Shown: one piece after another, positions 9,820 through 50,909 of the stretch | Layout of the letters: every line of letters starts with the position of its first letter | Numbering within the stretch: position 1 is the stretch's first letter | Source: an uncultured Actinomycetes bacterium | GTDB taxonomy: Bacteria > Actinomycetota > UBA4738 > HRBIN12 | NCBI GenBank assembly: GCA_963704725.1 | Contig: OY969934.1 | Location: 2,336,001-2,400,000 of the forward strand | Reading direction: 5' to 3' | DNA: 64,000 nt | Position numbers and translations under genes: made by a program | Notes under the pieces: generated by a model | Seen by the model: only the letters and a program-made list of their open reading frames with translations | What the model was told of the DNA's origin: nothing | Database searches by the model: none

Positions 9820-9903
9820 GACCGCACCTCCTTCCGAGCGCCGGATGCTACCGCGTCCCGGGCGGGGCCTCCCGATCGCCCGCCGGGGCGCTAGCCTTGG
9901 TCG

Positions 9904-15391: not shown

Positions 15392-16743
15392 GCGCGCTCA
15401 CCCCCGATCCGAGCGCCGATCCGACGCCCCTCGCGAGCGATCTCGTCCTCGTCCGCCGTCACCAGGCGCCCGTCGCGCACGACGATGTGGCCCTCCACCA
15501 CGAGGTTCCGGACGCGCTCGCTGGCACCCATCAGGAGGCCCGCGACGGGATCGGCGTCCGTCCCCGCGTGGGCGATGCCGTCGACCCCGAACAGCGCGAC
15601 GTCGCCCCGCTTGCCCGGCTCGATCGATCCGACGTCGTCGCGGCCGAGCACCTCCGCACCGCCGCGTGTGGCGAGACGAAGCGCCTCGCGCGCCGTCAGC
15701 CCGCGCTCCGGCCCCCCGGCGCGCGACACGAGCATGGCCTGGCGGATCTCGGCGAACAGGTCGCACGGCTCGTTCGAGGCCGACCCGTCCACGCCCAGGC
15801 CGACCCGCGCCCCCTCGTCGACCAACGCGCGGACCGGAGCGATCCCGGCGCCGATCCGCAGGTTGGAGGAGGGGCAGGAGGCCACGCCCGTCCGCGTGTC
15901 GGCGATCCGCCGGACGTCCTTCTCGTTCAGGTGGATGGCGTGGGCGAACCACACGTCGGGGCCGAGCCAACCCCAGTCGTCCATCAGCTCCAGCGGGCGG
16001 CGTCCGAAGCGCTCGAGGCAGAACCGCTCCTCGTCGAGCGTCTCGGCGAGGTGCGTGTGCATCGGCACGCCGAGCCGGCGAGCGAGCTCGGCGCTCTCCC
16101 GCATCAGCCGCTCGGTCACGCTGAACGGGGAGCACGGCGCGAGCGCGACGCGGAGCATCGACCCGGGTGACGGGTCGTGGAACCGGGCCACGGCCTCCTC
16201 CGACCTCGCGAGCGCGTCGTCCGTGGACTCCACGACGGAGTCGGGCGGCAGCCCGCCGGCCGACTGGCCGAGGTCCATCGAGCCGCGGCACGGATGGAAG
16301 CGCACCCCGAGCTCACGCGCGGCGCCGATCTCCACCTCGAGGAGATCGCCCGCGCCCGCGGGGTGGATGTAGTGGTGGTCGGTGGTGGTCGTGCAGCCGG
16401 ACAGCGCCAGGAGCGCGAGCCCCACGCGCGCCGACGCCCGCTCCCACTCCGCGTCGACGCCCGCCCACACCGGGTACAGCTCGACGAGCCACCCGAACAG
16501 CCCCTGCTCTCTGGCCCGGGCCCGGGTGAGCACCTGATACAGGTGGTGGTGGGTGTTCACCAGACCGGGCAGGGCGATCTGACCACGGCCGTCGAGCCGC
16601 TCGTCGGGCTCGGCAGGCGGCGCCCCGGTCCCGACCCAGGCGACGGCCCCGTCCTCGATCAGGATCGAGCCGCCGGTCACCTCGGCGCCGTCGTCGCCCA
16701 TCGTGACGACGACGTCGCACGCCTCGATCAGGAGCCTGCTCAC
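15388..16743 (-). CDS. 8-oxoguanine deaminase-like amidohydrolase
   Basis: PGLVNTHHHLYQ, DHHY, RGSMDLGQSAGGLPP, APCSPFSV, HTHLAET, GVDGSASN. Confidence 0.85.
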   Translation of the reverse strand: MSRLLIEACDVVVTMGDDGAEVTGGSILIEDGAVAWVGTGAPPAEPDERLDGRGQIALPGLVNTHHHLYQVLTRARAREQGLFGWLVELYPVWAGVDAEWERASARVGLALLALSGCTTTTDHHYIHPAGAGDLLEVEIGAARELGVRFHPCRGSMDLGQSAGGLPPDSVVESTDDALARSEEAVARFHDPSPGSMLRVALAPCSPFSVTERLMRESAELARRLGVPMHTHLAETLDEERFCLERFGRRPLELMDDWGWLGPDVWFAHAIHLNEKDVRRIADTRTGVASCPSSNLRIGAGIAPVRALVDEGARVGLGVDGSASNEPCDLFAEIRQAMLVSRAGGPERGLTAREALRLATRGGAEVLGRDDVGSIEPGKRGDVALFGVDGIAHAGTDADPVAGLLMGASERVRNLVVEGHIVVRDGRLVTADEDEIAREGRRIGARIGGERA

Positions 16744-17213
16744 GCCAGTGCCTCCCGGCGCCGTTGCGCCGCAAGCGAAACGGCGTCGACGATCTTCTGG
16801 TAGCCCGTGCACCGGCACAGGTTCCCCGAGAGCGCCTCGCGCACGGCGAGGTCGTCGGGCGCCGGGTCGCGTTCGAGGAGGTCGGTCACCGCCACGATCA
16901 GCCCGGGCGTGCAGAACCCGCACTGCACCGCGCCGGCCTCCACGAACGCCTCCTGCACCGGATGCAAGAGGTCGCCGTCGGACAGCCCCTCGACGGTCCG
17001 GACCTCGCGCTCGTGCGCCTGGGCCGCGAGCACGAGGCACGAGCACACGAGCTCGCCGTCGAGCCACACCGAGCAGGAGCCGCACTCCCCCTGCTCGCAC
17101 GCGTTCTTCGACCCCGGGAGCCGGAGCTCGTCGCGCAGGAACGACAGCAGGCTCGAGCCCTCCCAGGCGTCGGCCTCCCGCCACTCCCCGTTGACGCGGA
17201 CCCGGATCAGCAC
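16740..17213 (-). CDS. Xanthine dehydrogenase family 2Fe-2S subunit
   Basis: KNACEQGECGSC, QCGFCTPG, GNLCRCTGY. Confidence 0.92.
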   Translation of the reverse strand: MLIRVRVNGEWREADAWEGSSLLSFLRDELRLPGSKNACEQGECGSCSVWLDGELVCSCLVLAAQAHEREVRTVEGLSDGDLLHPVQEAFVEAGAVQCGFCTPGLIVAVTDLLERDPAPDDLAVREALSGNLCRCTGYQKIVDAVSLAAQRRREALA

Positions 17214-17271
17214 GGCCCGCCCCCCTCCGTGCCGGGCCGAACGCTCGCCTGCGGGCTCCCTCCCCGGGCGC

Positions 17272-18153
17272 TCACGACACCATCGCCTCCTCGGCGCGCT
17301 CCTCCATCGCCCAGCCGAGCGCGCGACGCGCCAGCACGCGGACGCCGTGCCGACGGTAGGCGGCCGTTCCCCGAACGTCGTCGATCGGGCTCGCCGCCTC
17401 CGCCACCTGTTCCGCGAACGCCTCCGCGACGCCCGGGGCGAGCGGCGCCGCGAGGTCGTCCCACGCGCCGGCGCGCTCGAGCTCGGCGACGAGCGCGGCC
17501 TCGGCGCCGGGGGCCCGAACGACGGTCGGGGCCACCGAGCCGAGGGCGACCCGCACGCTGCGACTCGCCTGATCGAGGACGAGGCACAGCGCCGCAACCG
17601 AGATCACCATCGCGTTGCGCGTGCCGATCTTCGAGAACGACTGCGGCCCGCCGGCGGTCCGCCACCGGGCCCCGAGGATCAGCTCGTCGGCCTCGAGCGC
17701 GTTCCGCTTCACCCCGAGCAGGAAGCCGTCCCACGGCAGCCACCGCTCGCCCCGCGCCGCCGAGACGAGCCCGATCTCCGCGTCGTGGGCCGCGAGCACG
17801 GGGAGCGCGTCGCCCGCCGGCGACGCCGTCCCGAGGTTGCCGCCCACGGTCCCCCGGTTCCGGATCTGGGGCGAGCCGACGGAGCGCGACGCCTCGGCCA
17901 GGGCGCGGAGCTGCGGCAGCTCCCGCTGGATCCGCGCATAGGTGACGCCGGCCCCGAGGACGACCAGCCCGTCGTCGATCCGCCACGTACGGAGCTCGGG
18001 CAGGCGAGACACGTCCAGGATGGCCTCGGGCCTGGCCAGGTCGAAGTTGATCTCCACCATGAGGTCGGTCCCGCCGGCGATCGGCACGGCCTCGGGATGG
18101 GCGGCGCGCAGCTCGAGCGCCTCCGCGAGCGTGGTCGGCAGGTAGGCCTCCAC
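17272..18153 (-). CDS. Xanthine dehydrogenase family FAD subunit
   Basis: AGGTDLMV, QIRNRGTVGGN, SPAGD, PIDDVRGTAAYR. Confidence 0.92.
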   Translation of the reverse strand: MEAYLPTTLAEALELRAAHPEAVPIAGGTDLMVEINFDLARPEAILDVSRLPELRTWRIDDGLVVLGAGVTYARIQRELPQLRALAEASRSVGSPQIRNRGTVGGNLGTASPAGDALPVLAAHDAEIGLVSAARGERWLPWDGFLLGVKRNALEADELILGARWRTAGGPQSFSKIGTRNAMVISVAALCLVLDQASRSVRVALGSVAPTVVRAPGAEAALVAELERAGAWDDLAAPLAPGVAEAFAEQVAEAASPIDDVRGTAAYRRHGVRVLARRALGWAMEERAEEAMVS

Positions 18154-18156
18154 GGC

Positions 18157-19166
18157 TCAGAACTCCCCGCCCGCGAACGCGTCGATCATGGCCTCCACGT
18201 CGTCACCGAGCGGATACAGGACGGGGCACGTGCACCCGGCCTCGACGTACTCGCGCACCTTGGCCCGGCACTCGTCCGCCGTTCCCGAGGCCGTGATCAT
18301 CTGCACGACGTCGTCGGGAACCAGCCTCATGGCGCGGCGGATCTCCTCGGGGCCGGCCGGCCAGGTGAGGACCTTGCCGATCTCCTCCAGCAGCGACGGC
18401 TCGACGCCGCTCGCCTTCCCGATGTGCGGCTGCTGCCCCAGGTACTGCGTGACGAGCTCGCGCGCCCGGTCCAGGGCCAGGTCGCGATCCTCGTCGAGCG
18501 AGCAGACCACGAGCTGCGGACGGTCGATGTCCTCGACGCGCACGCCGCGCTTGGCGCGCCCGCCGCGAGCCGCTCCATCGCGGTCGCGTTGTACGCCGGG
18601 CTCACCAGGTAGTTGAGCAGCGCGCCGTCGGCGATCTCGCCGGCGAGCTCCATCATCTGCATGCCCGTCGCGCCGAGGTAGATCGGCACCGCTCTCGGCG
18701 AGCGGTCGCCGTGGACGATGTCGATCTGGATGTCCTCGACGTCGACGAACTCGCCGTGGAACGTCACGTTCTCCATCGCGATCAGCCGGCGGACGACTTC
18801 GACGTACTCGCGCATCGCGAGCAGCGGCCGCTCCCGCCTCACGCCGACCTTCGTGGCGAGCGGCTCCCACCACGCGCCGATCCCGAGCATGATCCGCCCG
18901 GGCGCCAGGTCGTCGAGCGTGACGAACGTCGCCGCCATGAGCCCGGCGTTCCGCGTCCAGTTGTTCACGACCCCGGATCCCACCTTGATGCGCTCGGTCG
19001 TCGCAGCGAACGCGGCCATCGGCACCGTGGCCTCGCGCACGAGGCGGCTCTCGGCCTGCCACACGGCCTCGAACCCCTGGGCCTCGGCGTGTCGCACGTA
19101 CCGGATGCCGTCGGCGAGCGGGTGCTTGTCCTGCAGGTAGATCGCCACGCGCCCCTCGGAGCTCAC
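18157..19166 (-). CDS. LLM-class, Mer-like oxidoreductase (probably F420-dependent); indel near 18558
   Basis: [48 protein letters not shown]; C-terminus ASGTADEC...[10 protein letters not shown] lies in the adjacent frame. Confidence 0.82.
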
Positions 19167-19173
19167 CGCCACC

Positions 19174-20517
19174 TCACGCACCCCCCGCCGGCTCGAACGG
19201 GTGGGCCGGGATCGCGTCCATGCGGTTCCACAGGTCCTGGGCCGCCGCCTGCGCCAGGGCCCGGGGTTCGCCCTCGTCCTGGGTCGCCAGTCGCCGGTCC
19301 CTGACGACGACGGAGCCATCAACCACGACGTCGCGGACGTTGGACGCGGACAGCCCGAACACCCAGTGCCCGGCGAGGTTCTCCGCGCTGAGCGGTGTGG
19401 GGGGGTCGTAGTCGAGCACGACGAGATCGGCGGGCGCTCCGGGCTCGATCCGGCCCAGGAGCGGCTCCCCGAACGCGCGCCCGGCGAACGCGGCCCCGGC
19501 GGCGAGACGGCCGAGCACCCACGACGGCGAGATCGAGGGGTCGTCCTCGTGGCCGCGCCAGTAGGCGGCGCGTGACTCGGCGAACATGTCCCCGTCGATC
19601 CCGTCCGTTCCGAGCGCCACCCGCTCGCCGAGCGCGCCGACGGGGGCCCGCCCGACGCGGTTGTTCATGTTCGACCGCGGGTTGTGAACCACCCAGGCGC
19701 CGGCGTCGCGGATCAGGCCGATCTCGCGGTCGTCGACGTGCACGCAGTGCGCGAGGAGCGATCGCTCGGTGAGTGCGCCCGCATCGGCCAGGCGCTCGAC
19801 CACGCGACGCCCGAACCGGGCCTCGGCGTCGCGCTCGTCGGCGGCATCCTCGGCCACGTGGACGTGGATCCCGACCAGGAACTCGTCCGCAAGCGAAACG
19901 CAAGCAGCGAGCGTCTCCGCGGACAGGGTGAAGGAGGCGTGCGCCCCGACCATCGTCCGCAGCGTCGATGAGGCATCGTCGGCCCGGTCCTCCTTGAGAC
20001 GGCGAAGGGTCTCCTCGAGCCCGGCGGCCGCGGCGTCGAGGCCGTCGCGGTCGGTGACCTCGTAGCACAGGATCCGGCGGGCGCCGAGGCTGCTCAGGCC
20101 CTGGTCGAGCCACTCGAGCGACGCCGCGATGGCGGTCGGCGAAGCGTGGTGGTCGACGATCGTCGTCGTCCCCGAGAGCAGGGCATCGGCGCCGCCCGTC
20201 ATGGCCGACCGAAGGATCGATGTCGGGTCGAGTGCCCGGTCGAGCCGCCACCACACGCGCTGGAGGATCTGCACGAAGCTCTCCGGCGGCTCGAGGCGGT
20301 AAGGCATCCCTCGAGCCAGCGCCGAGTAGAGGTGGTGGTGCGCACACACGTTGCCCGGGATCACCAGGCAACCCGTGCAGTCGATCACGTCGGCCGATGG
20401 CTCCGCGGTCGCGCCCTCCGCCGCGATCCGGCCGTCGACCACCAGGACGTCGATCGGCCGGAGCGCCGGCGGATCGAGCGACGTGACCACCGTCCCGCCC
20501 GACAGGAGCAGGGTCAC
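19174..20517 (-). CDS. SsnA-like amidohydrolase
   Basis: [61 protein letters not shown] match the SsnA subfamily. Confidence 0.82.
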
Positions 20518-23127
20518 TCGGCCTCCGCGCGCCGGGCGGCCGCCCCGGCGAGCCGCGGGGCGAGCGCGGCACCCGCCGCCGAGTCGCGCATCGGGAGCTT
20601 CGTCCGCCACGTGCCCTCGAACGCGTGGAGCGCGCCGGCGCAGGCGGCCGCCGTCGGCACGAGTCCGATCTCGCCGACGCCCTTGGCCCCGAACGGCCCC
20701 TCGGGCTGCGGCACCTCGACCAGGATCGTCTCGACGTCCGGCATCCGAGGCGCCGGCACGATGCCGAGCGACTTCAGGGTGGTCGTCGTGGGGAACCCGC
20801 CCTCGACGGCGTACTCCTCGGTCAGGCCGAACCCCAGGCCCATGTGCACGGCGCCCTCGATCTGGCCCTCGAGCAGCGTGGGGTTCATGGCCCTGCCGAC
20901 GTCGTGCGCGGCGACGACCTTCTCCACGTGGCCCTCGTCGTCCAGGATCACGACCTGCACGGCCCAGCCGAAGGCGAAGTGCGTGACGGGGTTCGGGGCG
21001 TCCGATCCCGGCTTGTCCGTCCAGTCCACGACGATCTCGCCGTAGAACTCGCGGCCCGCGAGATCCTCGAGCCGGCTGCCGATCAGCTCCGCCTTGAGCT
21101 TCTTCGCCGCCTCCTGGATGGCGCGGCCGCCGAGGACCGTCGAGCGCGACGCCGTGGTCTGCCCGGTGTCGAGCTCGCGCATCGTGTCGACGATCACGTG
21201 GACCCGATCCGCCGTGATGCCGAGCTCCTCACAGACCACCTGCAGCAGGACGGTGTTCACGCCCTGGCCCATCTCGGTCCACGAGTGGAACAGCGTGACC
21301 GTGCCGTCGGCCTCGGGCCGCAGGATCGCCCGGCCGAACTCCGTCAGCCCGTTGCCGATCCCGGTGTTCTTCACGCCGGAGCCGATCCCCGCGTACCGGG
21401 CTCCCCGGTAGGCGTCGCGGACGGCCTCCAGGCACGCCTTGATCCCGACGCCCTCGCCCAGCACCTGCCCCGTGCCGAAGCGGTCGCCGACCTCGAGCGC
21501 GTTGCGCCACCGGATCTCCCAGGGGTCGAGGCCCACGAGCTCGGCCAGGCGGTCGAGCATCCCGTCGATCGCGAACATCACCTGGTTCACGCCGAAGCCG
21601 CGGAACGCGCCGCACGGCGGGTTGTTCGTGTAGACGGCCCGGGCCTCGACGTCGACCGCGTCGAACGCGGTACGGCCCGCACGCGTGCCCGGCCGCCCGC
21701 TCGAGCACCTTGTCGCCGACGCTCGCGTACGCGCCGGTGTCGCCGACGATCCGCGCCCGGACCCCGGTCAGCCTGCCGTCGGCCTCGCACCCGACCGTGT
21801 ACGTCATCGTGAGCGGGTGGCGCTTGGGGTGGAAGCGGAGGCTCTCGGCCCGCGTCAGCGTCAGCAGGACCGGCCGCCCCGTCGCCACCGCGGCGAGCGC
21901 GGTGTGGCACTGCACGTTCAGGTCCTCCTTCGCGCCGAACGCGCCGCCGTTGGAGACCTGGGTGACGCGGACGCGCTCCTCCGGCCATCCGAGGAACGAG
22001 GCGATCTGCCGACGGTCCTCCCACACGCCCTGCCCCTGGGACGAGACGTGGACCGTCCCGTCCGCCTCCGGCACCGCGAACGCGGACTCGGGCTCGAGGA
22101 AGGCGTGCTCGATGAACTGGGTCTGGAACGTCTCGGTCAGCACATGCGCCGATCCCTCGAGGGCGGCGTCGACGTCGCCACGCTTCACGATCGAGGTCGA
22201 GAGCAGGTTGCCGCTCTCGTGCAGCGCCGGGGCCTCCGGGGCCAGCGCGTCGAACGGGTCGGTGAGCGGCTCGAGCACCTCGTACTCGACGGCGACGAGC
22301 TCGGCAGCGTCGCGGGCGGCGCGCCGGGTCTCCGCGACGACGATCGCGAGCACGTCGCCGACGTAGCGCGTGATCTCGCCCTCGGCGACGACCTGGGGCC
22401 AGTCTCGCGTGATCAGGCCCTGGGCGCGCTCCCCCGTGACGTCGTCGGCGAGGAGCACGGCCACGACCCCCTCGTGCGCCAGCGCCGGCGCGGGATCGAT
22501 CCGCACCAGGCGCGCCCGGGGGTGGTCGCTGAACCGGAGCGCCCCGTGGAGCATCCCGGGCGCCGTGAGGTCGTTGATGTACGGCTTGTCCCCGAGCGCC
22601 AGCTCCCGGCCCTGGTACCGCGCCGTCCGCGAGCCGACCCGCCCCGACATCTCGGGCTCCGGCATGGGCTCGCCGGCGCGCGAGCGGGCCACGAGGTCGA
22701 CGGCATCGACGATCTTGAGGTAGCCGGTGCACCGGCACAGGTTGCCGGCGAGGGCCTTGGCGATCTCCTCGCGGGAGGGCGCGGGGTTCTTGGCCAGCAG
22801 GCCCTCGCCCTTCATCACGATGCCCGGCGAGCAGAACCCGCACTGCGACGCGCCGGAGACGACGAACCCGTCCGCCCACCGCTCGCGCTCCTGCGGCTCG
22901 AGGCCCTCCTGCGTGACGATGTGACGCCCCGCCACCCGGTCGGCCTTCTGCGCGCACGAGACCACGGCCTTGCCGTCGACCAGCACCGTGCAGGCCCCGC
23001 ACGAGCCCTCCGGGGCGCACCCGTCCTTCACCGAGGTCACGCCGAGCTCCTCGCGGAGGAGCTCGAGCAGGCTCATGCCCGGGCGAACCTCGGCCGAGAC
23101 CGGTCGTCCGTTCAGCGTGAGGTCCAC
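20514..23127 (-). CDS. Fused 2Fe-2S + molybdopterin hydroxylase (selenium-dependent XDH/XdhD-like architecture); indel near 21665
   Basis: N-terminal KDGCAPEGSCGAC, QCGFCSPG, CRCTGY, then HAFLEPE, GGAFGAKED, AFRGFGVNQ, TTASR, GAKGVGE. Confidence 0.85.
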
Positions 23128-23182
23128 GAGGGCCTCGCCTCCTTCTCGCCGCATCGAACTGCTCGCATCATGAGGCCGCCCG

Positions 23183-24139
23183 TCATCGTTCGGCCGGACC
23201 GATCCTCGTGCCGGTCTCCCCCGCCAGCGCGCGGGCCACGCTCTCGGGGTTGGTGATCAGGGCGGTGCCGCCGGTGGCCTCGACGAACGCGACCGCGGCC
23301 TCGATCTTCGGCGCCATGCTGCCCTTGGCGAAGTGCGTGCCCTCGGCCAGGTACGCCCGGGCCTCCTCCGGCGTCAGGTGGTCGACCCATTCCTGCTCCG
23401 GCGTGCCGAACCGGAGCGCGACCTTCTCGATCGACGTGCTGATCACGAACAGCTCCGCCCCCAGCGAGGACGCCAGCAGCGAGGAGGCACGGTCCTTGTC
23501 GATGACCGCGGCGACGCCGCGGAGATCGCCGTTCTCGTCCGCGACCACGGGGATCCCGCCGCCGCCGACGGCGATCACGACGACCCCGGCGCGCAGGAGG
23601 TCGCGGATCACGGCTTCCTCGACGATCCGCATCGGCTCCGGCGAGGCGACCACCCGGCGCCAACCGCGGCCGGCGTCCTCGACCACGCTCCACCCCTCCT
23701 CGTCCCGGCGGCGGGCGGCCTGCGCCTCGTCCATGTACGAGCCGATGGGCTTGGTCGGATCCCGGAACGCCGGGTCGTCCGCCGCCACCTCGGTCTGCGT
23801 GATGACGGTGGCGACGCGCTTGTCGATGCCGAGCCGGGCGAAGTCGTTGTACAGGTTCTGCTGGAGGGCGTAGCCGATCGCCCCCTGCGTGTCGGCCCCG
23901 CACACGTCGAGCGGGACCTCGTGGAGCTCGTGAGCGGCGAGCTCGGACCGGCGGAGGATGAACCCGACCTGCGGGCCGTTGCCGTGCGTGATGGTCACGT
24001 TCCAGCCGTCGCGGATCATCCCGGCGATGTGCATGCACGTCTCGCCGGCGGCGATGTACTGATCGCGCACCGTCTGGTGCATCGTGTCCTTGATCAGCGA
24101 GTTCCCGCCGATCGCGACGACCGCCGTGCGCTCACCCAT
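23183..24139 (-). CDS. arcC: Carbamate kinase
   Basis: VAIGGNSL, THGNGPQVG, PTKPIG, RRVVASP, AVIDKD, GSMAPK. Confidence 0.95.
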   Translation of the reverse strand: MGERTAVVAIGGNSLIKDTMHQTVRDQYIAAGETCMHIAGMIRDGWNVTITHGNGPQVGFILRRSELAAHELHEVPLDVCGADTQGAIGYALQQNLYNDFARLGIDKRVATVITQTEVAADDPAFRDPTKPIGSYMDEAQAARRRDEEGWSVVEDAGRGWRRVVASPEPMRIVEEAVIRDLLRAGVVVIAVGGGGIPVVADENGDLRGVAAVIDKDRASSLLASSLGAELFVISTSIEKVALRFGTPEQEWVDHLTPEEARAYLAEGTHFAKGSMAPKIEAAVAFVEATGGTALITNPESVARALAGETGTRIGPAER

Positions 24140-24157: not shown

Positions 24158-25111
24158 CTACTCCACCGCGCCCAGGACCAGCGACAGCAGGGCCATCCGC
24201 ATCACGACGCCGTTGAACGCCTCGGTCCAGTATCGGGCGTGGCGGGTCGCATCGACGTCGGCCGGCAGCTCGTCCATCCGAGGGAGCGAGTGCAGGATGA
24301 TGGCGTCGCTCTTGGCCTTCTCGCCCAGCAGCTGGCGGGTCACGCGGTACTCGGCGGGCGTGGTGGGGAGCTCTCCGCCGCGCTCGTCGCGCCCCTTCGT
24401 GTAGTCGGCCTGCACCACCGGCTCCATGTAGATGACGTCGACGTCGCCGATGACCTTCTCGACGGACTCGGCCTCGATGTACCGGACGTTGCGCTCGTCG
24501 AGCTCCGTCTTGAACTCCGGCAGGAGCGACATGTCGGGCGGGCCGACGACGTAGGAAACGACGTCGAACTGGCTGAACGCGTACAGGATCGAGTGCATCG
24601 TCCGCATCCGCATGTCGCCGACCAGCAGGAAGTTCAGCCCGTCGATGCGGCCGCGCTCCTTCCACGTCGTGTAGAGGTCGGTGAGGACCTGCGTGGGGTG
24701 CTCGCCCCAGCCGTCCCCGCAGTTGATGATCGGCACCGAGGCCCACCTCGCGGCCTCCTCGGGCGCGCCCTGCTGGAAGTGCCGCATCGCGATGACGTCC
24801 GCGTAGAACTCCAGCATGTGGACCGTGTCCTTGATCGACTCCTGGTAGAAGTCGCCGGCGCGGGTGTTCTTCGCGTCGGAGAACCCGAGCACGTGCCCGC
24901 CGAGCCGGTGCATGGCCGCCTCGGTGGCCATCCGCGTCCGGGTGCTCGGCTGGTAGAACGCCGTCAGCAGGCTCTTGTCCTTGAGCAGGTCGCTGTTGCG
25001 CCGCCCCTTCGCGATCGGCGCGAGCCGGTCGCAGATCTCGAAGACGTGGAAGAACTCCTCCCGCTCGAACTCCTTGAGCGAAAGGATGTCGCGTCCGGCG
25101 AAGCTCCTCAT
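24158..25111 (-). CDS. Aspartate carbamoyltransferase-like protein with an altered acceptor site
   Basis: FYQPSTRT, MRH, GDGWGEHPTQ, HSLPR retained; YMEPVVQ replaces the canonical YMTRxQxER. Confidence 0.8.
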   Translation of the reverse strand: MRSFAGRDILSLKEFEREEFFHVFEICDRLAPIAKGRRNSDLLKDKSLLTAFYQPSTRTRMATEAAMHRLGGHVLGFSDAKNTRAGDFYQESIKDTVHMLEFYADVIAMRHFQQGAPEEAARWASVPIINCGDGWGEHPTQVLTDLYTTWKERGRIDGLNFLLVGDMRMRTMHSILYAFSQFDVVSYVVGPPDMSLLPEFKTELDERNVRYIEAESVEKVIGDVDVIYMEPVVQADYTKGRDERGGELPTTPAEYRVTRQLLGEKAKSDAIILHSLPRMDELPADVDATRHARYWTEAFNGVVMRMALLSLVLGAVE

Positions 25112-25130: not shown

Positions 25131-26473
<1,343 letters not shown>

Positions 26474-26477
<4 letters not shown>

Positions 26478-27967
26478 GCCACCTCGATGCCCGAACGGGC
26501 GTTGAACGCCCGGATCGCCTCGTCCCACGCCGGCATCAGGTCGCGCAGGCCGCGCCAGAACCCCTGGTCGCGCCGGGCCGTGAAGTCCTCGATCGACACG
26601 CCCTGCTGCTCGACCCACGTGAAGTACCCGAGGTTGAAGACCCGGTCTCGGTCCTCGTCCGTGAGCTGGGCCATGTCGCCCGTGCCCTGCCCCTCGAGAG
26701 AGCGGCCGAACGTCTCGGCGGCCTCGGCCTCCCCGAACCCGCCGGGGAAGTCGCGCGCCAGGACCTTGTCGACCTCCGTGCGGTACATCGAGGCGCCGTC
26801 CGTCGCGATCGTCACGATGACGTCGTCGGCTCCCAGATGCTGCAGCCTCGCCGTCTTGATCGCGCCGAGGACGTTGCAGATGCTCGAGAGCCCGAAGGAG
26901 TCCAGGGCGGAGATCGTCGCCTCGTCGACGCCGCGCCGGCGGAGGTAGGCCCGGCCCTCCGCGGTGTTGAACAGGACGTTCAGCCGGTCGGTGTCCCGGT
27001 CGCTGAGGTCCACCACGACGTCGGTGTTCATGACGTTGTGGATCAATGGAACGTGCTTGTCGCCGATCCCCTGGATGTTGTGCTCGCCGAACCCGTTGCG
27101 GAGCAACGTGGGACACTCGAGCGCCTCGGCCGCGACGATGGACGTTCCGTACCGGTCTTTCAGGTGGTCGCCGGCCGCGATCGTGCCTGCGGAGCCGGTG
27201 GCGGAGACGAACGCGCGCAGGCGCAGTCCCGGGTCGCGCTCGCGCAGCGTCTCGAACACGTGGGCCAGCGCCCGGCCCGTGACCAGCTCGTGCACGAGGT
27301 GGTTGGGGTACTCCGAGAACTGGTTCAGGATCACGTTCCCCGGATCCACGGCCAGGCGCTTGCACTCGTCGTAGATCTCGCGGACGTTGCTCTCCACGCC
27401 CGGCGTCCGGATGACGTCGGCGGCGTCGAGGACCCACCGCTCCAGCCACTCGAACCGCTCGCGGCTCATGCCCTCCGGTAGGACCGCCACGCCCCGGCAC
27501 CCCATGATGCGGCTGATGGCCACGCCGCCCCGGCAGTAGTTGCCGGTCGAGGGCCACACGGCCCGGTGCGCGGTCGCGTCGAACTCGCCGCCGACGACCC
27601 GGGGCACCAGGCAGGCGTAGGCCGCCAGGACCTTGTGCGCGCCGATCATGGGGAAGCGGTCGCCGAGCACGACCACGATCTTCGCGTCGACGCCGGTGAG
27701 CGACGACGGCAGGACCACGTGCGCGGGGACCTCGACGATCCCTCGCCGGTCCGCGGCGTTGTACCAGTGGACGCGGAACAGGTTCAGCGGGTGGGCGGAG
27801 TCGGGGTCGATGCCCGCGAGCTCGTCGCGGATCCGCTGGGGGATCTTGGCGGGCTCCGCCAGCTGCTCGAACGTGGGCAGCGCGATCCCCGCCTCACGGA
27901 ACCGGTCGACCGTCCGCTCCTGGATCCGCGGATCGGCGACGTCGTGCTCGAGGCCCGATCCCGTCAT
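26474..27967 (-). CDS. Fold-type II (TrpB/CysK superfamily) PLP-dependent enzyme, about 497 aa
   Basis: [37 protein letters not shown]. Confidence 0.82.
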
Positions 27968-28095: not shown

Positions 28096-28174
28096 GGCGC
28101 CGCAGGGGATGCCCGTCGGCCCGTGGCGTGAGGGGCCCTTCGGCCCTGCTCGCCGACGGCGAGATTGACAGACC

Positions 28175-28444
28175 GTGGACACCGTGAGCGCACCGGCGGA
28201 TCGGCGCAGGGTCAGGGCCGAGTTCACCGTCTTCCCCTTCCGTGAGAGCGAGGCCCTGCCGGCCCACGCCCGGGCCGCCGTGGAGGCGGCTCGATCGGCC
28301 GGTGCGGAGGTGGACGTCGAGCCGCTGTCCAGCGTCGCCTCGGGTGAGGTCGAGGTCGTCCTCGAGGCCGTGCGCGCGGCGGCCATCGCCGCGTTCGGGG
28401 CGGGAGCGACGCGGTTCACCCTCAACGTCGAGGTGGAGCCGTGA
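28175..28444 (+). CDS. Thiamine_BP/YkoF-like small ligand-binding protein
   Basis: RAEFTVFPF...[13 protein letters not shown]...[13 protein letters not shown] ferredoxin-like pattern; coupled to the next gene by GTGA. Confidence 0.7.
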
Positions 28445-28926
28445 CCGCGGAGACCGAGTTCGCGCAGGCGCTGGCGGGGGCGCTCGGGCCCCTGTACCGC
28501 GTGTCCGTCGTCGGCTCGAACGGGGACGTCGAGGCGACGTTCCGGGCCCCGGACCAGGCCGAGGCCGGGGTCCCCTCGAGCCGGATCGGGCTCCCGGGCT
28601 CCTCCTCGTGCCTGGTGGTCGAGGTCGACGTCGGCGCGCTCCAGGCCGCCGACCGCGTCCTGCACGAGCTCGCCCGGGCCAGATGGGAGACCTCGATCGG
28701 CCTGCCCAACCTGGACGGTGCCCTCGAGGAGCTGATCTCCGACGCCGAGTCCAGGATCGGACGGCCGGTCGCCGAGATGAGCCGGATCGACAAGCAGCGG
28801 CTGGTCAAGTTCCTGGACGAGCGCGGGGCGTTCTCCCTCCGCAAGTCGGTCGAGGGGGTCGCCCTCGTGCTCGGGGTGAGCCGATTCACGGTCTACAACT
28901 ACCTCGACGCCTCGCGAGGCTCTTGA
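28441..28926 (+). CDS. Transcriptional regulator with a YheO-like HTH_22 C-terminus
   Basis: [38 protein letters not shown]. Confidence 0.85.
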
Positions 28927-29170
28927 CGGCGCCCCCGGCGTGCGCGGAGACGGCCCGCTCCCGGGCCCCACGACCCCATCGCAGCGGGCCGTTTGCCTCA
29001 GCGCCCGTCTCCGCCCCGCCCGGCATGCTTGCCGACGGCGTTCAACATTCCGACAGGTCGGGAGCGATCACCGTGCGGAACCCCCAGCCGATCCCCCGTC
29101 GATCCGCGTCCACGGTTCGTGCGGCGGCGGGGTCGCCCTGCGGCCACCCCCGGACGCGGCGGCCGGTCGC

Positions 29171-30353
29171 GTGACGATCGCCGCCCGTGGGGACCTGCGC
29201 CGGTTCCTGGTGAGCTGGTTCGCGCTGCCGGGGGCCGCGCTCGCCGCCCTGCTGGTCGGCGCGGCGATGCTCCTCGCGCTCGGCGCGAACCCTCTGACCG
29301 GATACCGCGCGCTGGCCGAGGGAGCCTTCGGCAGCTTCGATGCGCTCGCCGACACGGCGATCAAGGCGGTGCCGCTGGTGCTCGTCGGCGTGGGCATCTG
29401 CATCGCGTTCCGCGCCAACGTCCTGAACATCGGCGGCGAGGGTCAGATGGTCATGGGCGGCCTGGCGGCCACGGCGACGGCGATCGCCGTCCCCGGCGTG
29501 CCCGCGCCCCCTCATGGTGCCGCTCGTGCTGCTCGCCGGCGCCGCCGGCGGGGCCGTGTGGGGGGCGATCCCCGGGTCGCTGAAGGCCTACCTCAACGTC
29601 AACGAGATCCTGTCCACGATCATGCTCAACATCGTTGCGGTGCAGGTCATGAACTATCTGCTCGCCGGACCCATGGTCGACAAGGAGTTCTCCGGCTTCT
29701 CCCTGATCCCGCAGACCAAACGGCTCGCGCCGAGCGCGGACCTGCCGGTGCTCCCCGGCGGAACGAAGCTCCACGCGGGGGTCGTCGTGGCGGTGCTCGC
29801 CGCGGTGCTCGTGTACGTCCTGCTGTGGCGAACGGGGCTCGGGTTCCGGCTACGCGCGGTGGGGCTGTCGCGAGAGGCGTCCGCGTACGCGGGCATCCCC
29901 GTGAAGCGGACCATCACGCTGGCGATGACGCTGGCCGGGGCCATGTCCGGCCTGGCCGGCGCCGTGGTGGTCTTCGGCGGGGCCTCGCACCGGATGGTCA
30001 CGGACGGCACCGCGACGGGGTTCACCGGATCCGCGGGCTTCAACGGGATCGTCGCCGCCCTGTTCGGGGGGCTGCATCCCGTGTGGACGATCCTGTCCGC
30101 GTTCGTCTTCGGCGGCCTGCTCGTCGGTGGCAACGCCATGCAGATCGCCGTCCAGGTCCCGACGGCGCTGGTCGTGGCGCTGAACGGCGTGCTCGTGGTC
30201 TTCGTCGTCTCGATCGAGTACCTGCGCCGCCGGGCCCGACTGCGGCTCGAGGTGCCCGCCGGCGCGCTGGCCGAGAGCCGTCCCCGGCTCGAGCCCGCCG
30301 CCGCGGGGGCCGCCGCGGCGGCGGAGGATCCCCCCGGGGAGGCCGGCGGATGA
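29171..30353 (+). CDS. Nucleoside/purine ABC transporter permease 1; indel in the C-run near 29510
   Basis: NIGGEGQ, then NEILSTIMLN, GFRLRAVG, GFNGIVAALFG in the shifted frame. Confidence 0.85.
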
Positions 30354-31282
30354 GGGACTTCTTCACCCTCACCGTGCTCACGGCCACCGTCGCCGCCGGG
30401 GTCCGGCTGGCCACCCCGTTCCTGCTGGCCAGCCTTGGCGAGACCATCGGACAGCGCAGCGGGGTCCTCAACCTGGGCGTCGACGGGATCATGCTGCTCG
30501 GCGCCTTCGGCTCGTACTACACGGCCCTGCACTCGCACAGCCTGTGGCTCGCGGTGCTGGTCGGCGCGCTCGTCGGGGCGACGATGGGCCTCGTCACGGC
30601 CTTCGTCAGCGTGACGCTGAAGGCCGAGCAGGGCATCAGCGGCATCGGCGTCTTCCTGTTCGGCCTGGGGCTGTCCGACCTGCTGTTCCAGAAGCTCGTG
30701 GGCACGCCCGTGCCGATCCCGACGTTCCCCACGGTCAAGGTCCCGCTCCTCGCGAGCATCCCCACCGTCGGCGAGATGCTGTTCCAGGCCAACCTGATGG
30801 TCTACCTGGCCTTCCTGCTGGTCCCCGTCCTCGCGTTCGTCCTCAACCGAACGACGTACGGCACCAACGTGAAGGCGGTGGGCGAGAACCCGGCCGCCGC
30901 CGACAGCGTCGGCGTGAACGTCGCGCGGGTGCGGTACTCCACGGTCCTGCTGGGCAGCACGCTCGCCGGCGTGGCCGGCGCGGCCCTCGCGCTCCAGCTC
31001 GGCATCTTCCAGCAGAACCTCACCCAGGGGCAGGGGTTCATCGCGGTCGCGCTGGTCTACTTCGGCGCGTGGCGTCCCGTGGGCGTGATGGCCGGCTCGC
31101 TCCTCTACGGGATGGTCGCGGCCACGGTCCTGACGTGGAAGACGCTCGGGATCATCCCGCAGAGCGCCTCGGACCTGGCGGCGATGGCTCCGGCGGTGCT
31201 CACCGTCCTCGCCCTCGTCGTCGTCGCCCGGCGCTTCCGGCAGCCGGCCGCCCTGGCCAGGCCCTACGAACGAGGAGGCTGA
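30350..31282 (+). CDS. Nucleoside/purine ABC transporter permease 2
   Basis: QRSGVLNLGVDG, AVGENPAAADSVG, GQGFIAVALV. Confidence 0.9.
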   Translation: MRDFFTLTVLTATVAAGVRLATPFLLASLGETIGQRSGVLNLGVDGIMLLGAFGSYYTALHSHSLWLAVLVGALVGATMGLVTAFVSVTLKAEQGISGIGVFLFGLGLSDLLFQKLVGTPVPIPTFPTVKVPLLASIPTVGEMLFQANLMVYLAFLLVPVLAFVLNRTTYGTNVKAVGENPAAADSVGVNVARVRYSTVLLGSTLAGVAGAALALQLGIFQQNLTQGQGFIAVALVYFGAWRPVGVMAGSLLYGMVAATVLTWKTLGIIPQSASDLAAMAPAVLTVLALVVVARRFRQPAALARPYERGG

Positions 31283-31343
31283 GGACGCTCGAGGGACGGA
31301 TCCCCGCATCACCGAAGGCACGGATCCCGAAGGAGGGGTTGGC

Positions 31344-32423
31344 ATGGACACGAAGCTGCTTCGATGGGCCCGCCTCGCGGCCATCGTCGCGGTCCTGGCG
31401 ATCGTCGCCGCGGCCTGCAGCGACGACGGCACCACGAACGGGCCGACGAACACCGGCACCACCGGCACGACGGCGACGACGACCGGGACCACCGGCACCA
31501 CCGGCGCCACCGGCACCACGGCCGCCGAGCCGTTCCGCGTGGCGGTCGTCGCACCGAGCGCCACGAACGACCTGGCGTTCACGCAGTCGATGGTCGACGC
31601 GCTGAACACCCTGAAGGACTCCGAGAACCTCGACATCGCGGTCTCGGACAACCTGTTCGTCGTGGACGACGCGGCGAGCGCGCTCCAGAACTACGCCGAG
31701 CAGGGCTACGACCTGGTCATCGCGCACGGGTCGCAGTTCGGCGGCATCATCGAGCAGCTCGCGCCGGAGTTCCCCGACGTCTCGTTCGCCTGGGGCACGG
31801 CGGGCGACACCTTCGGCCAGCCCAACGTGTACGCCTACCAGGCCGCGTCGGACCAGGGCGGCTACGTCCAGGGCGTGCTCGCGGCGGGGCTGACGCAGAC
31901 CAAGAAGATCGGCGTGGTCGGCCCCATCGAGGTCGGCGACGCGAAGCTGTACGTCGACGGGTTCGTCGCCGGCGTCGCGGCCGCCGATCCCTCGGTCAAG
32001 GTGAACGTGAACTACACGGGATCGTTCAGCGACGTCGCGCTCGCGACGGAGGCGGCCCGGAGCTTCGTGGCGGCCGACGCCGACGTCCTGACCGGCTCGG
32101 CCCAGATGGTCGTCGGAGCGGTCGGGGTCGCGTCGGAGCGAGACGTGCCGTGGTTCGGGACGCAGGCCAACCAGACCTCGCTCGCCCCGAACATCGTCGT
32201 GTCTTCCCAGGTCTACCACTGGGAGGTCGCCCTGCAGCAGATCATCGACGGCATCCGCGGTGGGACGCTGGGCGGCCAGAGCTACACGATCGATCTCGCC
32301 AACGGCGGCGAGGTCATCGAGTTCAACCCGGATTACAGCGTTCCCGCCGACGTGCAGGCGGCCGGTGAGGACGCGATCGCCGGGCTCTCGGACGGCTCGA
32401 TCACGACCGGCGTCTCCGAGTAG
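31344..32423 (+). CDS. BMP family ABC substrate-binding lipoprotein
   Basis: Lipobox AAAC; Thr/Gly linker; DLAFTQS, GYDLVIAHG, YTGSFSD. Confidence 0.9.
   Translation: MDTKLLRWARLAAIVAVLAIVAAACSDDGTTNGPTNTGTTGTTATTTGTTGTTGATGTTAAEPFRVAVVAPSATNDLAFTQSMVDALNTLKDSENLDIAVSDNLFVVDDAASALQNYAEQGYDLVIAHGSQFGGIIEQLAPEFPDVSFAWGTAGDTFGQPNVYAYQAASDQGGYVQGVLAAGLTQTKKIGVVGPIEVGDAKLYVDGFVAGVAAADPSVKVNVNYTGSFSDVALATEAARSFVAADADVLTGSAQMVVGAVGVASERDVPWFGTQANQTSLAPNIVVSSQVYHWEVALQQIIDGIRGGTLGGQSYTIDLANGGEVIEFNPDYSVPADVQAAGEDAIAGLSDGSITTGVSE
31447..31522 (+). repeat. Imperfect 9-bp repeats (ACCGGCACC) encoding a Thr-Gly-Thr linker
   Basis: TNTGTTGTTATTTGTTGTTGATGTT in the BMP N-terminus. Confidence 0.8.
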
Positions 32424-32448
32424 CTCGAAGGGGCGAGGGGGAGGGACG

Positions 32449-34041
32449 GTGGAGGCGACCGCTCCGGGAACGGCCTCGGTGGAGGCCGCGCCGATGCTGG
32501 AGATGCGCGGCATCACGAAGCGCTTCCCCGGAGTGGTCGCCAACCACCGGATCGACTTCGACGTGCGCGTCGGCGAGGTGCACACGCTCCTCGGCGAGAA
32601 CGGGGCGGGCAAGAGCACGCTGATGCGCGTCCTCTACGGCCTGTACCGGGCGGACGAGGGCGAGATCCGCCTGGGCGGCGAGCGGGTCACCATCGCCTCT
32701 CCCGCCGACGCGATCCGCAACGGCATCGGGATGATCCACCAGCACTTCATGCTCGTGCCCTCGCTCACCGTGGGCCAGAACGTCGCGCTGGGGCTGCGCT
32801 CCTCGCGCGGCTTCCTCACGGACCCGGACCGCGTCGCCCGGACGGATCCGGGAGCTCTCGCAGGCCTACGGGCTCAAGGTCGACCCCGACGCGTACGTGT
32901 GGCAGCTCTCCGTGGGCGAGCGCCAGCGCGTCGAGATCATGAAGGCGCTCTACCGCAACGCCACGCTGCTCGTGCTCGACGAGCCGACGGCGGTGCTCAC
33001 CCCACAGGAGGTGGACGACTTCTTCGTCATCCTGCGGCAGATGGTCCGCGACGGGCGTGGCCTCGTCTTCATCTCGCACAAGATCCGCGAGGTGCTCGCG
33101 CTCTCGGATCGCATCACCGTCCTGCGCGACGGTCGCACCGTCGGCACGGTCCTGCCCGCCGACGTGTCGCGGCGGGATCTCGCCAACATGATGGTGGGCC
33201 GCGAGATCGACACCGCCGAGCGGCCCACCGAGGCCTCGGCGGCCGAGGTTCGGCTGGTCGTGCGCGGGCTCCACGTTCGCGGCGACCGCGGGAACGAGGC
33301 GGTGCGGGGCGTCGACCTGGAGGTTCGCTCGGGCGAGGTCGTGGGGATCGCCGGCGTGTCCGGGAACGGGCAGCGCGAGCTGGCCGAGTCGATCGCCGGC
33401 CTCCGGCCGTCGACCGCGGGCTCGATCCTGCTCGACGGCGCCTCCCTGGACGGACGGGGGCCCGCGGAGGTGCGGGAGGCCGGGCTGGGCCACGTCCCCG
33501 AGGAGCGGATGCGCGACGGGGTGATCGGCGACTTCAGCGTGGCCGACAACCTGCTGCTCGTGGACAGTCGCTCCACCGACTACACGCGAATCTGGGGTTC
33601 CTGCGCAACCGCGCCATCCGCGGCCACTGCGAGCAGCTCGTCGCCGACTTCAACATCAAGGCGCCGAGCCTGGACACGCCGGCCCGAAACCTGTCGGGCG
33701 GCAACATCCAGAAGCTGATCCTGGCCCGAGAGCTCTCCGGGCGGCCCCGCGCCCTCCTGGTCGCGCAGCCCACGCGCGGCGTCGACGTCGGCGCCGCCGA
33801 GTACATCCACCGCCGCCTGATGGAGCAGCGCGCCGCCGGCACCGCCATCTTGATCATCTCGGAGGACCTGGACGAGATCCTGTCGCTCTCGGACCGGATC
33901 CTCGTCGTGTACGAGGGGTCGATCATCGGGGAGGTGGATCCCCGGACGACGGCCCGGGAGACCCTGGGGCTGATGATGGCCGGCGTCCGGGCCGACGCGG
34001 CGGACGATCGGGCCGGGGCCCCCTCCTCGCGCGAGGACTAG
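32449..34041 (+). CDS. Nucleoside/sugar ABC ATPase with two NBDs; compensating indels near 32838 and 33590
   Basis: GENGAGKST, LSVGERQRVEI, LDEPT, LSGGNIQK, QPTRGVDVGA. Confidence 0.88.
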   Translation: MEATAPGTASVEAAPMLEMRGITKRFPGVVANHRIDFDVRVGEVHTLLGENGAGKSTLMRVLYGLYRADEGEIRLGGERVTIASPADAIRNGIGMIHQHFMLVPSLTVGQNVALGLRSSRGFLTDPDRVARTDPGALAGLRAQGRPRRVRVAALRGRAPARRDHEGALPQRHAARARRADGGAHPTGGGRLLRHPAADGPRRAWPRLHLAQDPRGARALGSHHRPARRSHRRHGPARRRVAAGSRQHDGGPRDRHRRAAHRGLGGRGSAGRARAPRSRRPRERGGAGRRPGGSLGRGRGDRRRVRERAARAGRVDRRPPAVDRGLDPARRRLPGRTGARGGAGGRAGPRPRGADARRGDRRLQRGRQPAARGQSLHRLHANLGFLRNRAIRGHCEQLVADFNIKAPSLDTPARNLSGGNIQKLILARELSGRPRALLVAQPTRGVDVGAAEYIHRRLMEQRAAGTAILIISEDLDEILSLSDRILVVYEGSIIGEVDPRTTARETLGLMMAGVRADAADDRAGAPSSRED

Positions 34042-34168
34042 CGTGCGGCGCCACCGAACGTCTTCCGACGGCGCCGAAGGAGGGGAACGCCGAGGGTCGG
34101 GCGGCCCTGCCGCGAAAGGCCGGGCGACCGCTTTCGGCGTGCCCGGCGGGGCCGATGGTTCCATCGGC

Positions 34169-43269: not shown

Positions 43270-43345
43270 GGTCCCATCGTCTAGTGGCCTAGGACACCAC
43301 CCTCTCAAGGTGGAGACACGGGTTCGAACCCCGTTGGGACTACCA
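43270..43345 (+). tRNA. tRNA-Glu(CTC), probable integration site
   Basis: GGTCCCATCGTCTAGTGGCCTAGGACACCACCCT-CTC-AAGGTGGAGACACGGGTTCGAACCCCGTTGGGACTACCA. Confidence 0.96.
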
Positions 43346-44816: not shown

Positions 44817-45028
44817 GGCGCCTCCTCCCCCATCAGCTGCTCTGCCAGCGCGAGCAGCGCCCTAGCGAGAGGCCCGAGGTTAGCATCGACCTCTGCCGCA
44901 TCGGCTTCCGCAATGGCGTCGAGACCGTCCCGCCGCGGCTCGCGTTCCCCGTCCGCAGGGTCGTCGCCCCTCCCGCGCCGGTGGCGGAGCTCGGCATCTG
45001 TTGGCGCGTCCTCGCGCCGCGGCCTCAA
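44813..45028 (-). CDS. Small protein coupled between the relaxase and the recombinase (71 aa)
   Basis: TTG start overlaps the relaxase TGA; its TGA overlaps the recombinase GTG; GAGGAGG RBS lies in its 3' end. Confidence 0.6.
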   Translation of the reverse strand: MRPRREDAPTDAELRHRRGRGDDPADGEREPRRDGLDAIAEADAAEVDANLGPLARALLALAEQLMGEEAP

Positions 45029-50793: not shown

Positions 50794-50909
50794 GGATCCT
50801 CCTCCGTTTCCAAGGTTCGGAGTCTCCATCAAACCCAGGGCGGTTCATGGTCTGCGACATTCCGCTCTGGGGGGGTGCGTGCAAGTACGTCTATCACTAG
50901 ACGGCGACG

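Follow-up and report, generated by a model that had tools for sequence, protein, structure and literature searches.

The reductive degradation of urate (the 2,8-dioxopurine or 'yanthine' route) was solved in 2025 in gut bacteria. In Escherichia coli and Clostridium it involves XdhD-YgfM, YgfK, SsnA, HyuA, YgeW, YqeA, YgeY and YgeX (Li et al., 2025, Life Metab; Liu et al., 2025, bioRxiv). As outlined in these reports, urate is converted by XdhD into 2,8-dioxopurine, which is reduced by YgfK, and ring opening by SsnA and HyuA yields 2,3-diureidopropionate. Phosphorolysis by YgeW and hydrolysis by YgeY lead to diaminopropionate, which is transformed into pyruvate via YgeX (Li et al., 2025; Liu et al., 2025). 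The present analysis concerns a carbamoyltransferase gene, here termed PyrB2 (24158..25111, minus strand), in a window of 64,000 nucleotides, i.e. the whole stretch of DNA analyzed (contig OY969934.1 of an uncultured Actinomycetes bacterium, positions 2,336,001 to 2,400,000). Positions refer to the window unless given as genome positions. PyrB2 probably serves in the reductive urate pathway as a catabolic carbamoyltransferase that replaces YgeY; from comparative genomics we infer this role as well as the substrate, direction, regiochemistry and ATP yield of its reaction.

Several proteins annotated as aspartate carbamoyltransferase (ATCase) have been grouped as 'pseudo-ATCases' and placed at the base of the family ATC II (Barba, Dutoit, Legrain and Labedan, 2013, BMC Syst Biol 7:99). 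A single member, Rxyl_2847 from Rubrobacter xylanophilus, has been assayed; it is a ureidoglycine carbamoyltransferase that phosphorolyses allantoate and has a carbamate kinase as neighbor. Its substrate is the one-carbon lower homologue of 2,3-diureidopropionate. Subgroup 2, represented by Nocardioides sp. JS614, lies beside a ygeW homologue, xdhABC and hyuA; no function was proposed for it (Barba et al., 2013).

PyrB2 is read as a phosphorolytic substitute for YgeY because it lies in an SsnA/XdhD cluster with a YgeW-like transferase and a carbamate kinase and without YgeY, because the two genes exclude each other across the order, and because they share one slot within otherwise collinear clusters. 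In the source genome, which is one contig of 3.45 Mb and 95% complete, the best YgeY match reached 134.9 bits (cut-off 321.5) and the best match to a YgeX-type lyase 40.9 bits (cut-off 532), so that neither family was represented over its cut-off. An earlier note on this DNA had proposed a catabolic phosphorolase acting together with YgeW. Cluster content, the lack of YgeY, the order-wide exclusivity and the slot swap all support such a role, the substrate being deduced from context.

Exclusivity was assessed across the order of the source genome, in 181 genomes that are each at least 85% complete. PyrB2 was called at E <= 1e-100 and YgeY over its model cut-off. PyrB2 was present in 41 of the 181 genomes, and the two genes were distributed as follows.

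SsnA-positive genomes (n = 51): PyrB2 in 38, YgeY in 10, both in 0, neither in 3 (G040, G078 and G177; 88-93% complete)
SsnA-negative genomes (n = 130): PyrB2 in 3 (87-89% complete), YgeY in 0, both in 0, neither in 127

All ten YgeY genomes were thus SsnA-positive. Four of the 51 genomes are unpublished (G079 with PyrB2, G011 and G050 with YgeY, G078 with neither); after their removal PyrB2 occurred in 37, YgeY in 8 and neither in 2 of 47. One PyrB2 genome (G113) contains a sub-threshold M20 match of 216.8 bits on a different contig. An earlier pass over 41 relatives, a set overlapping with this one, gave 18 SsnA-positive genomes, with PyrB2 in 10, YgeY in 7 and neither in 1. The genomes of the order are kin, and these counts do not represent independent trials.

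Both variants occur within each of three genera: the genus of the window, G161 versus G162, and G176 versus G175. In the congeners G004 and G005 a YgeY-family hydrolase (NF009555, 484.6 and 480 bits; cut-off 321) is located between XdhD and PALP_B, the gene of a pyridoxal-phosphate (PLP) enzyme upstream of PyrB2. The same slot holds PyrB2 and the carbamate kinase in the source genome (G000), G009 and G010. Apart from this slot, YgeY and PyrB2 congeners have collinear clusters, the YgeW-like gene included, and G004 and G005 possess only the other, non-cluster type of carbamate kinase. Other arrangements were observed in related clusters. In G030 (family f7), whose cluster is of the YgeY variant, a threonine-synthase-family PLP enzyme (NF006050, 317.7 bits; L044, 1521-2801) stands between SsnA and XdhD, and an unannotated gap of ~1.3 kb lies between the same two genes in L130 (G175). 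One genome, G016, has PyrB2 twice: the additional copy (L038, G016:C206, 4353-5300) shares 73% identity with that of the window and lies in a second, more divergent cluster, with an LLM (luciferase-like oxidoreductase) of ~50% identity and an SsnA-like protein of 39% that nevertheless exceeds the SsnA cut-off with 476 bits.

The gene cluster of the window extends from ~27961 to 11968, all on the minus strand and with short gaps, PALP_A being the first and the YgeW-like gene the last. Reading frames were picked by third-position GC content, followed by Pfam and NCBIfam scans.

26474..27961, minus strand: PALP_A, CysK-like PLP enzyme with N-terminal extension, start uncertain
25131..26528, minus strand: PALP_B, ThrC/dehydratase-like PLP enzyme with N-terminal Cys-rich segment, start uncertain
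24158..25111, minus strand: PyrB2, pseudo-ATCase-type carbamoyltransferase of 317 aa, intact, assigned from fold, motifs and model
23183..24139, minus strand: carbamate kinase, cluster-specific second copy (NF009007, 376.7 bits; TIGR00746, 360.3 versus 358.25 bits)
20514..23157, minus strand: XdhD-like Mo/Fe-S enzyme of the selenium-dependent xanthine dehydrogenase type (TIGR03311, 577.5 and 355 bits in two pieces)
19174..20553, minus strand: SsnA-like aminohydrolase (NF005540, clearly its best family, 418.8 bits, cut-off 444)
18157..19223, minus strand: luciferase-like (F420-type) oxidoreductase, LLM (Pfam/NCBIfam)
16740..18153, minus strand: molybdenum hydroxylase, FAD subunit 17272-18153 and 2Fe-2S subunit 16740-17258
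15388..16782, minus strand: 8-oxoguanine-deaminase-type amidohydrolase (NF006055, 617.8 bits, cut-off 532)
13006..15397, minus strand: PucD-type xanthine dehydrogenase Mo subunit
11968..12957, minus strand: YgeW-like carbamoyltransferase, 329 aa (NF005538, 247.2 bits, cut-off 453)

The closest solved relative of the YgeW-like protein is E. coli YgeW (3q98, E 7.5e-64); its relatives at other loci show 32-40% identity to E. coli YgeW, a comparison that leaves the window copy aside. The LLM takes the place of E. coli YgfK in the cluster. Located 1.7 kb past the window end, a D-hydantoinase (TIGR02033, 600.9 bits; genome 2401734-2403080) is likely the HyuA equivalent; its orthologue in G162 (83% identical; L128, 243-1589) directly abuts the cluster. 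A second carbamate kinase is found at genome position 1799195.

The PyrB2 open reading frame starts with ATG, preceded at ~7 nt by a GAGGAGG Shine-Dalgarno sequence, and encodes 317 amino acids. The stop codon of PALP_B lies 19 nt ahead of this start, and the carbamate kinase begins 18 nt downstream of PyrB2, in line with the earlier observation that the gene is directly upstream of such a kinase. Third-position GC content is 0.98 in the gene, compared with a GC content of 70.9% in the window. Pfam identified both fold halves (OTCace_N, E 1.1e-41; OTCace, E 1.7e-23). The closest solved structure is the Pyrococcus abyssi ATCase (1ml4, E 1.8e-72). An AlphaFold2 model based on a 42-row alignment reached a mean predicted local distance difference test (pLDDT) score of 92.0 and a predicted template-modeling (pTM) score of 0.92. 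Its top structural matches are ATCases only, with 1ml4 at a template-modeling (TM) score of 0.89 and 42% identity. The 80s loop (block pLDDT 67) and residues 231-250 (63 and 60) are the soft parts. What the structure prediction establishes is limited to the fold, strand register and loop flexibility of PyrB2.

A true, divergent ATCase for pyrimidine synthesis would be suggested by the fact that all best solved relatives are ATCases, and by the ATCase model TIGR00670, which PyrB2 passes by 5 bits (242.0 versus 236.95). Other ATCase models are missed (NF002032, 211.3 versus 263; NF006046 and NF008853 far under their cut-offs), and YgeW models found no match in PyrB2 (25.7-26.5 bits versus cut-offs of 453-500). 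Source names in the 120 closest PyrB2 clusters, of 80-97% identity, are all 'aspartate carbamoyltransferase'; the expectation that annotation pipelines would label the gene pyrB thus proved right. Canonical pyrB is encoded elsewhere in the genome (2074726-2075619; TIGR00670, 309.8 bits) with an RVQRER motif and the loop Lys84. It adjoins a dihydroorotase-like open reading frame, the pair spanning genome positions 2073366-2075619, and such a separate copy had been named in the earlier note as a point to look for. PyrB2 shares ~31% identity with this canonical PyrB, and an argF-like gene is present as well. PyrI found no match across the whole genome. Among the scanned reading frames of the window there is no pyrC, pyrI or pyrR, as stated earlier. 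PyrB2 further lacks the RxQxER motif and Lys84, and it is confined to 41 of the 181 order genomes, where it tracks SsnA. A role in pyrimidine synthesis is therefore given next to no credence, and from its sequence and context PyrB2 is more likely a catabolic enzyme than the housekeeping ATCase.

In ATCase, the aspartate substrate is held at its beta-carboxylate by Arg229 and Gln231 and positioned at its alpha-carboxylate by Arg167 and Lys84; the RxQxER motif is described as present in all known ATCases (Shi et al., 2015). PyrB2 was aligned residue by residue to the E. coli PyrB, for which the K-12 record was translated. STRT, MRH (Arg105), HPTQ and Arg167 are all retained in PyrB2, as is the HxLP motif in the form HSLP instead of HPLP, so that the carbamoyl-phosphate motifs are intact, as read earlier. 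The alignment of VDVIYM-E-P-V-V-Q-A-D with E. coli VDILYM-T-R-V-Q-K-E-R is free of gaps and confirms that YMEPVVQAD takes the place of the Arg229/Gln231 segment; the model strand V226-I-Y-M229 likewise follows the conserved Asp with no gap. Glu230, Pro231, Val233 and Asp236 thus correspond to E. coli positions 228, 229, 231 and 234, and the RxQxER motif of the 240s loop is absent, with P231 (for Arg229), V233 (for Gln231) and D236 (for Arg234) in those positions. The 80s loop reads K-N-T-R-A-G-D-F-Y-Q-E-S versus N-T-S-L-G-K-K-G-E-T in E. coli. It is two residues longer, has Arg at the Ser80 position, contains Asp87, Phe88 and Tyr89, and lacks a Lys at position 84, which agrees with the earlier reading TRAGDFYQES. 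The 240s region exceeds that of ATCase by roughly 5-8 residues, a figure that varies with the alignment.

Among 74 full-length PyrB2 members from several phyla (lowest pairwise identity 71%), 129 of the 317 positions are invariant. They include Y228-M-E-P231 (with E230), V233, Q234, D236, Y237 and T83-Y89. Since the same residues are invariant in these members, the replacements are judged from the sequences not to be due to chance or sequencing error. The earlier claim that the aspartate-recognition residues are lost is correct as regards the ATCase positions but does not extend to positive charge as such: Lys81 and Arg84 of the 80s loop are invariant, and Arg241 in the lengthened 240s loop occurs in at least 95% of the members. 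The predicted site fits an alpha-N-carbamoyl acid with a cationic or neutral side chain, since the beta-carboxylate clamp is now Pro/Val, flanked by the invariant Glu230, Gln234, Asp236 and Tyr237.

The following reaction sequence is proposed. Urate would be reduced by the XdhD-like enzyme and the F420-type reductase. SsnA and the hydantoinase would open the rings to form 2,3-diureidopropionate, from which both ureido groups are removed to yield 2,3-diaminopropionate. PyrB2 would move one carbamoyl group to phosphate, in place of the hydrolysis by YgeY, and the adjacent carbamate kinase would convert the carbamoyl phosphate into ATP. With both PyrB2 and the YgeW-like enzyme at work, two ATP per urate may thereby be obtained, not one. 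PyrB2 may attack the 2-ureido group of 3-amino-2-ureidopropionate or 2,3-diureidopropionate, with the 3-ureido group falling to the YgeW-like enzyme, because Arg105 and Arg167, which suit a substrate with alpha-N-carbamoyl and alpha-carboxylate groups, are kept while the beta-carboxylate clamp is replaced. Tentatively, PyrB2 is designated an alpha-N-carbamoyl-2,3-diaminopropionate (2-ureido) phosphorylase which, with a 3-ureido-specific YgeW-like enzyme and a single kinase, would turn both ureido groups into ATP, a fully phosphorolytic form of the pathway that, rather than the E. coli form, would be the common one in soil Actinomycetota and several further phyla. This specific designation is held with less than even confidence.

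The order of ureido cleavage is disputed in print, and an R (D) configuration has been proposed for the intermediates. In one report, E. coli YgeW is assigned the 2-ureido group; its product is albizziin (3-ureido-2-aminopropionate), which YgeY and YgeX turn into pyruvate (Li et al., 2025). Transferred to the window, this order would leave the 3-ureido group to PyrB2, which would be an albizziin phosphorylase of the same pathway, running a diaminopropionate beta-N-carbamoyltransferase reaction in reverse, with the YgeW-like enzyme taking the 2-ureido group. PyrB2 does occupy the YgeY slot, and the loss of Arg229/Gln231 shows only that there is no aspartate-type distal carboxylate. The sole carboxylate of albizziin would, however, sit at the lost beta-carboxylate clamp, while the alpha-carboxylate Arg167 is invariant, and the opposite order for YgeW has also been reported (Liu et al., 2025), in agreement with a 2-ureido role for PyrB2. 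Albizziin is regarded as a rather unlikely substrate, though one to be taken seriously.

Relatives beyond the order were collected in a scan with one genome per species, which found at least 579. The best 80 loci, 76-93% identical and selected by PyrB2 similarity, were examined; they span 2,033-20,963 bases, and some absences reflect contig ends. They originate from metagenome-assembled genomes labeled Actinomycetota (Gaiellaceae, Thermoleophilia, Acidimicrobiales, Streptosporangiaceae, Frankiaceae and Nitriliruptorales), Chloroflexota, Verrucomicrobiota, Planctomycetota (Phycisphaerales), Spirochaetota, Thermotogae and Pseudomonadota. Gene contents were as follows.

Any of SsnA, XdhD, LLM or YgfK: 71/80 loci
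SsnA: 58/80 loci
Carbamate kinase: 53/80 loci
YgeW-like gene: 58/80 loci
Kinase or YgeW-like gene: 65/80 loci
PALP_A: 65/80 loci
PALP_B: 58/80 loci
Immediately downstream of PyrB2: YgeW-like gene in 33, XdhD in 35 and kinase in 6 of 80 loci
Immediately upstream of PyrB2: PALP_B in 49/80 loci

The median identity to the window proteins is 80% for PyrB2, the highest of the cluster proteins although inflated by the choice of loci, 57% for SsnA and 51% for the YgeW-like protein. In a Frankiaceae locus (L095) the order is SsnA, LLM, diaminopropionate ammonia-lyase (NF006058, 386.5 bits; cut-off 276), PyrB2, YgeW-like gene and kinase, an arrangement that points to diaminopropionate as the product and links both transferases to it. 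PyrB2 genomes of five further lineages, one from each, contained no YgeY (0/5; completeness unknown). Two broader rules were tried and discarded. PyrB2 does not always replace YgeY, as L099, L105, L110 and L120 contain both genes. Nor is it tied to the F420 variant: two Spirochaetota loci (L098 and L118) pair PyrB2, a PALP_A-like gene, a YgeW-like gene, kinase and SsnA with a YgfK of the E. coli type (50% identity).

PyrB2 might act on another carbamoyl compound, such as N-carbamoyl-beta-alanine or a ring-opened isomer upstream of diureidopropionate, or in a biosynthetic carbamoylation, its link to YgeY being indirect. A hydantoinase/dihydropyrimidinase-type gene does lie near PyrB2 in 13 of the 80 loci; two uncharacterized PLP enzymes accompany it, so that the lower pathway may differ from that of E. 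coli; and YgeY, a YgeW-like gene and PyrB2 occur together in four genomes. The exclusivity of YgeY and PyrB2, their shared slot within three genera and the compact operon of L095 argue otherwise, and such substrates appear improbable.

For the tree, the best 150 representatives at 50% identity were reduced to 94 of 290-360 aa, and four frameshift-like rows were dropped. Addition of the window PyrB2, E. coli PyrB, the PyrB of the same genome and the window YgeW-like protein (outgroup) gave 94 rows. Leaving the outgroup aside, 48 of the 93 rows are canonical and contain RxQ, 40 lack RxQ and carry Arg at the Ser80 position, and the remaining 5 fit neither group. FastTree placed 35 of these 40 in a 36-row clade (support 97) that includes PyrB2 and stands apart from 47 canonical ATC II rows. 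PyrB2 forms a tight subclade (support 100) on a long stem inside that clade, a position seen with FastTree only.

Beside the narrow pass of the ATCase model, several points weigh against a phosphorolytic YgeY substitute specific for the 2-ureido group. A YgeY-family gene lies beside PyrB2 in four of the 80 loci (L099, L105, L110 and L120; 409.8-565.7 bits at three of them), and these genomes also carry a YgeW-like gene. The gene combinations require different ureido groups for PyrB2 and the YgeW-like enzyme, not which of the two each takes, and the 2-ureido assignment of E. coli YgeW (Li et al., 2025) opposes the one proposed here. The suggested R (D) configuration fits poorly with L-aspartate-like binding. 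Lys81, Arg84 and Arg241 sit in the least confident loops of the model and could still bind a carboxylate. Finally, a single-base uncompensated indel splits each of XdhD (~21666), LLM (~18540-18559) and PucD (~14270) by comparison with G009 and G010; if these indels are real, the pathway is decaying in the source genome. The ATPase of the ABC (ATP-binding cassette) transporter (32428-34041) and the downstream PAS/GAF histidine kinase (34127-36136) are read in three frames each, and this density of frameshifts suggests long-read assembly errors rather than decay. Among the sequencing runs listed, none contained more than 0.10 of the words sampled, and no run of RNA was among the holders.

Upstream of the cluster, the following features are located on the opposite strand.

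28169..28926, plus strand: divergent Thiamine_BP-like open reading frame and HTH_22 regulator (Pfam)
29153..34041, plus strand: BMP-family (purine/nucleoside-type) ABC transporter, its ATPase read in three frames

The Thiamine_BP-like/HTH_22 pair also flanks the cluster in L046 and L033. CofC, a protein of F420 biosynthesis, is encoded on the plus strand at 9895-10548, 1.4 kb beyond the cluster end, and is syntenic in G009, G010, G004 and G005. PALP_A and PALP_B form a conserved fold-type-II PLP pair at the place of E. coli YgeX; a true diaminopropionate ammonia-lyase substitutes for one or both of them in G162 and L095. For PALP_A, the Protein Atlas returned clusters named 'PLP-dependent enzyme' only. 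Two tandem phosphoesterase-family (PF04185) paralogues occupy 36219-38998 (minus strand). A mobile-element patch at 43305-50832 comprises a large serine recombinase (43425-44840), followed by a Replic_Relax protein (45157-45996) and by two IS3-type transposase pairs (48017-49200 and 49580-50799).

In soil bacteria, YgeW-like enzymes seem as a rule to be partnered by the PyrB2 family, which would double the substrate-level ATP from urate. An annotation correction would concern many records, i.e. at least the 579 relatives in one genome collection. Hydrolase and phosphorylase versions within single genera represent a natural experiment in enzyme replacement. ATCase offers a second, structurally better understood scaffold for regiochemistry, and a 2-ureido specificity of PyrB2, if true, would settle the disputed order of ureido cleavage. 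Use in engineered uricolytic strains that balance energy yield and flux may be possible. In the literature searched, a role of PyrB2 in the reductive urate pathway as an alternative to YgeY was not found. Pseudo-ATCases that are catabolic and kinase-coupled are known as a kind of enzyme.

By its sequence, PyrB2 is assigned to the 'pseudo-ATCase' assemblage of 2013. Like its members, it is an ATCase-annotated paralogue beside a genuine ATCase, retains STRT and HPTQ, has R230-Q232 replaced (P-V-V) and carries a variant of the H265-P268 motif (HSLP). It branches with ATC II, with the P. abyssi ATCase as closest solved relative, and shares the kinase neighbor and a catabolic purine context. HSLP matches subgroups 2 and 3, and the gene context resembles subgroup 2. 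From the assayed subgroup 1 it differs in HSLP and P-V-V (V-Q-A/P two residues on) instead of HPLA and AIA/AIS/SIA, and in having SsnA, XdhD and LLM rather than an allantoinase as neighbors. These differences bear on a further possibility, namely that PyrB2 is an allantoate phosphorylase (ureidoglycine carbamoyltransferase) like Rxyl_2847 in an oxidative urate pathway. Common membership in this broad assemblage, the neighboring carbamate kinase and the chemical closeness of allantoate to diureidopropionate would be compatible with it; the genome, however, harbors no uricase, no allantoinase over the cut-off and no PuuE, and together with the motifs and neighbors this makes it very improbable.

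ATCase (PyrB, ATC II; 1ml4 and 1d09) shares with PyrB2 the fold, 35-42% identity, the carbamoyl-phosphate site, Arg105 and Arg167. PyrB2 differs in the replacement of Arg229, Gln231, Arg234 and Lys84, in its longer 80s and 240s regions, in the lack of a PyrI or pyrC partner and in its catabolic context. Ornithine and putrescine carbamoyltransferases with carbamate kinase, known from the arginine and agmatine deiminase pathways, follow the same logic of ureido phosphorolysis and subsequent ATP formation. They belong to another branch of the superfamily and use other substrates, whereas two transferases feed one kinase in the PyrB2 cluster.

With the E. coli/Clostridium pathway the window cluster has in common the SsnA-like, XdhD-like and YgeW-like proteins and the carbamate kinase, and the diaminopropionate ammonia-lyase in sister clusters implies the same end product, diaminopropionate. 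The sets differ in the exchange of YgfK for LLM, of YgeY for PyrB2 and of YgeX for two other PLP enzymes, and the hydantoinase lies ~38 kb off. The swap from YgfK to LLM has been hinted at for Chloroflexota (Li et al., 2025). The terms pyrB and aspartate do not occur in either pathway paper (Li et al., 2025; Liu et al., 2025). As described, the neighborhood map of Li et al. (2025) scored 'YgeW' by PF00185 and 'YgeX' by PF00291, which would hide PyrB2, also a PF00185 protein, and the two PLP enzymes.

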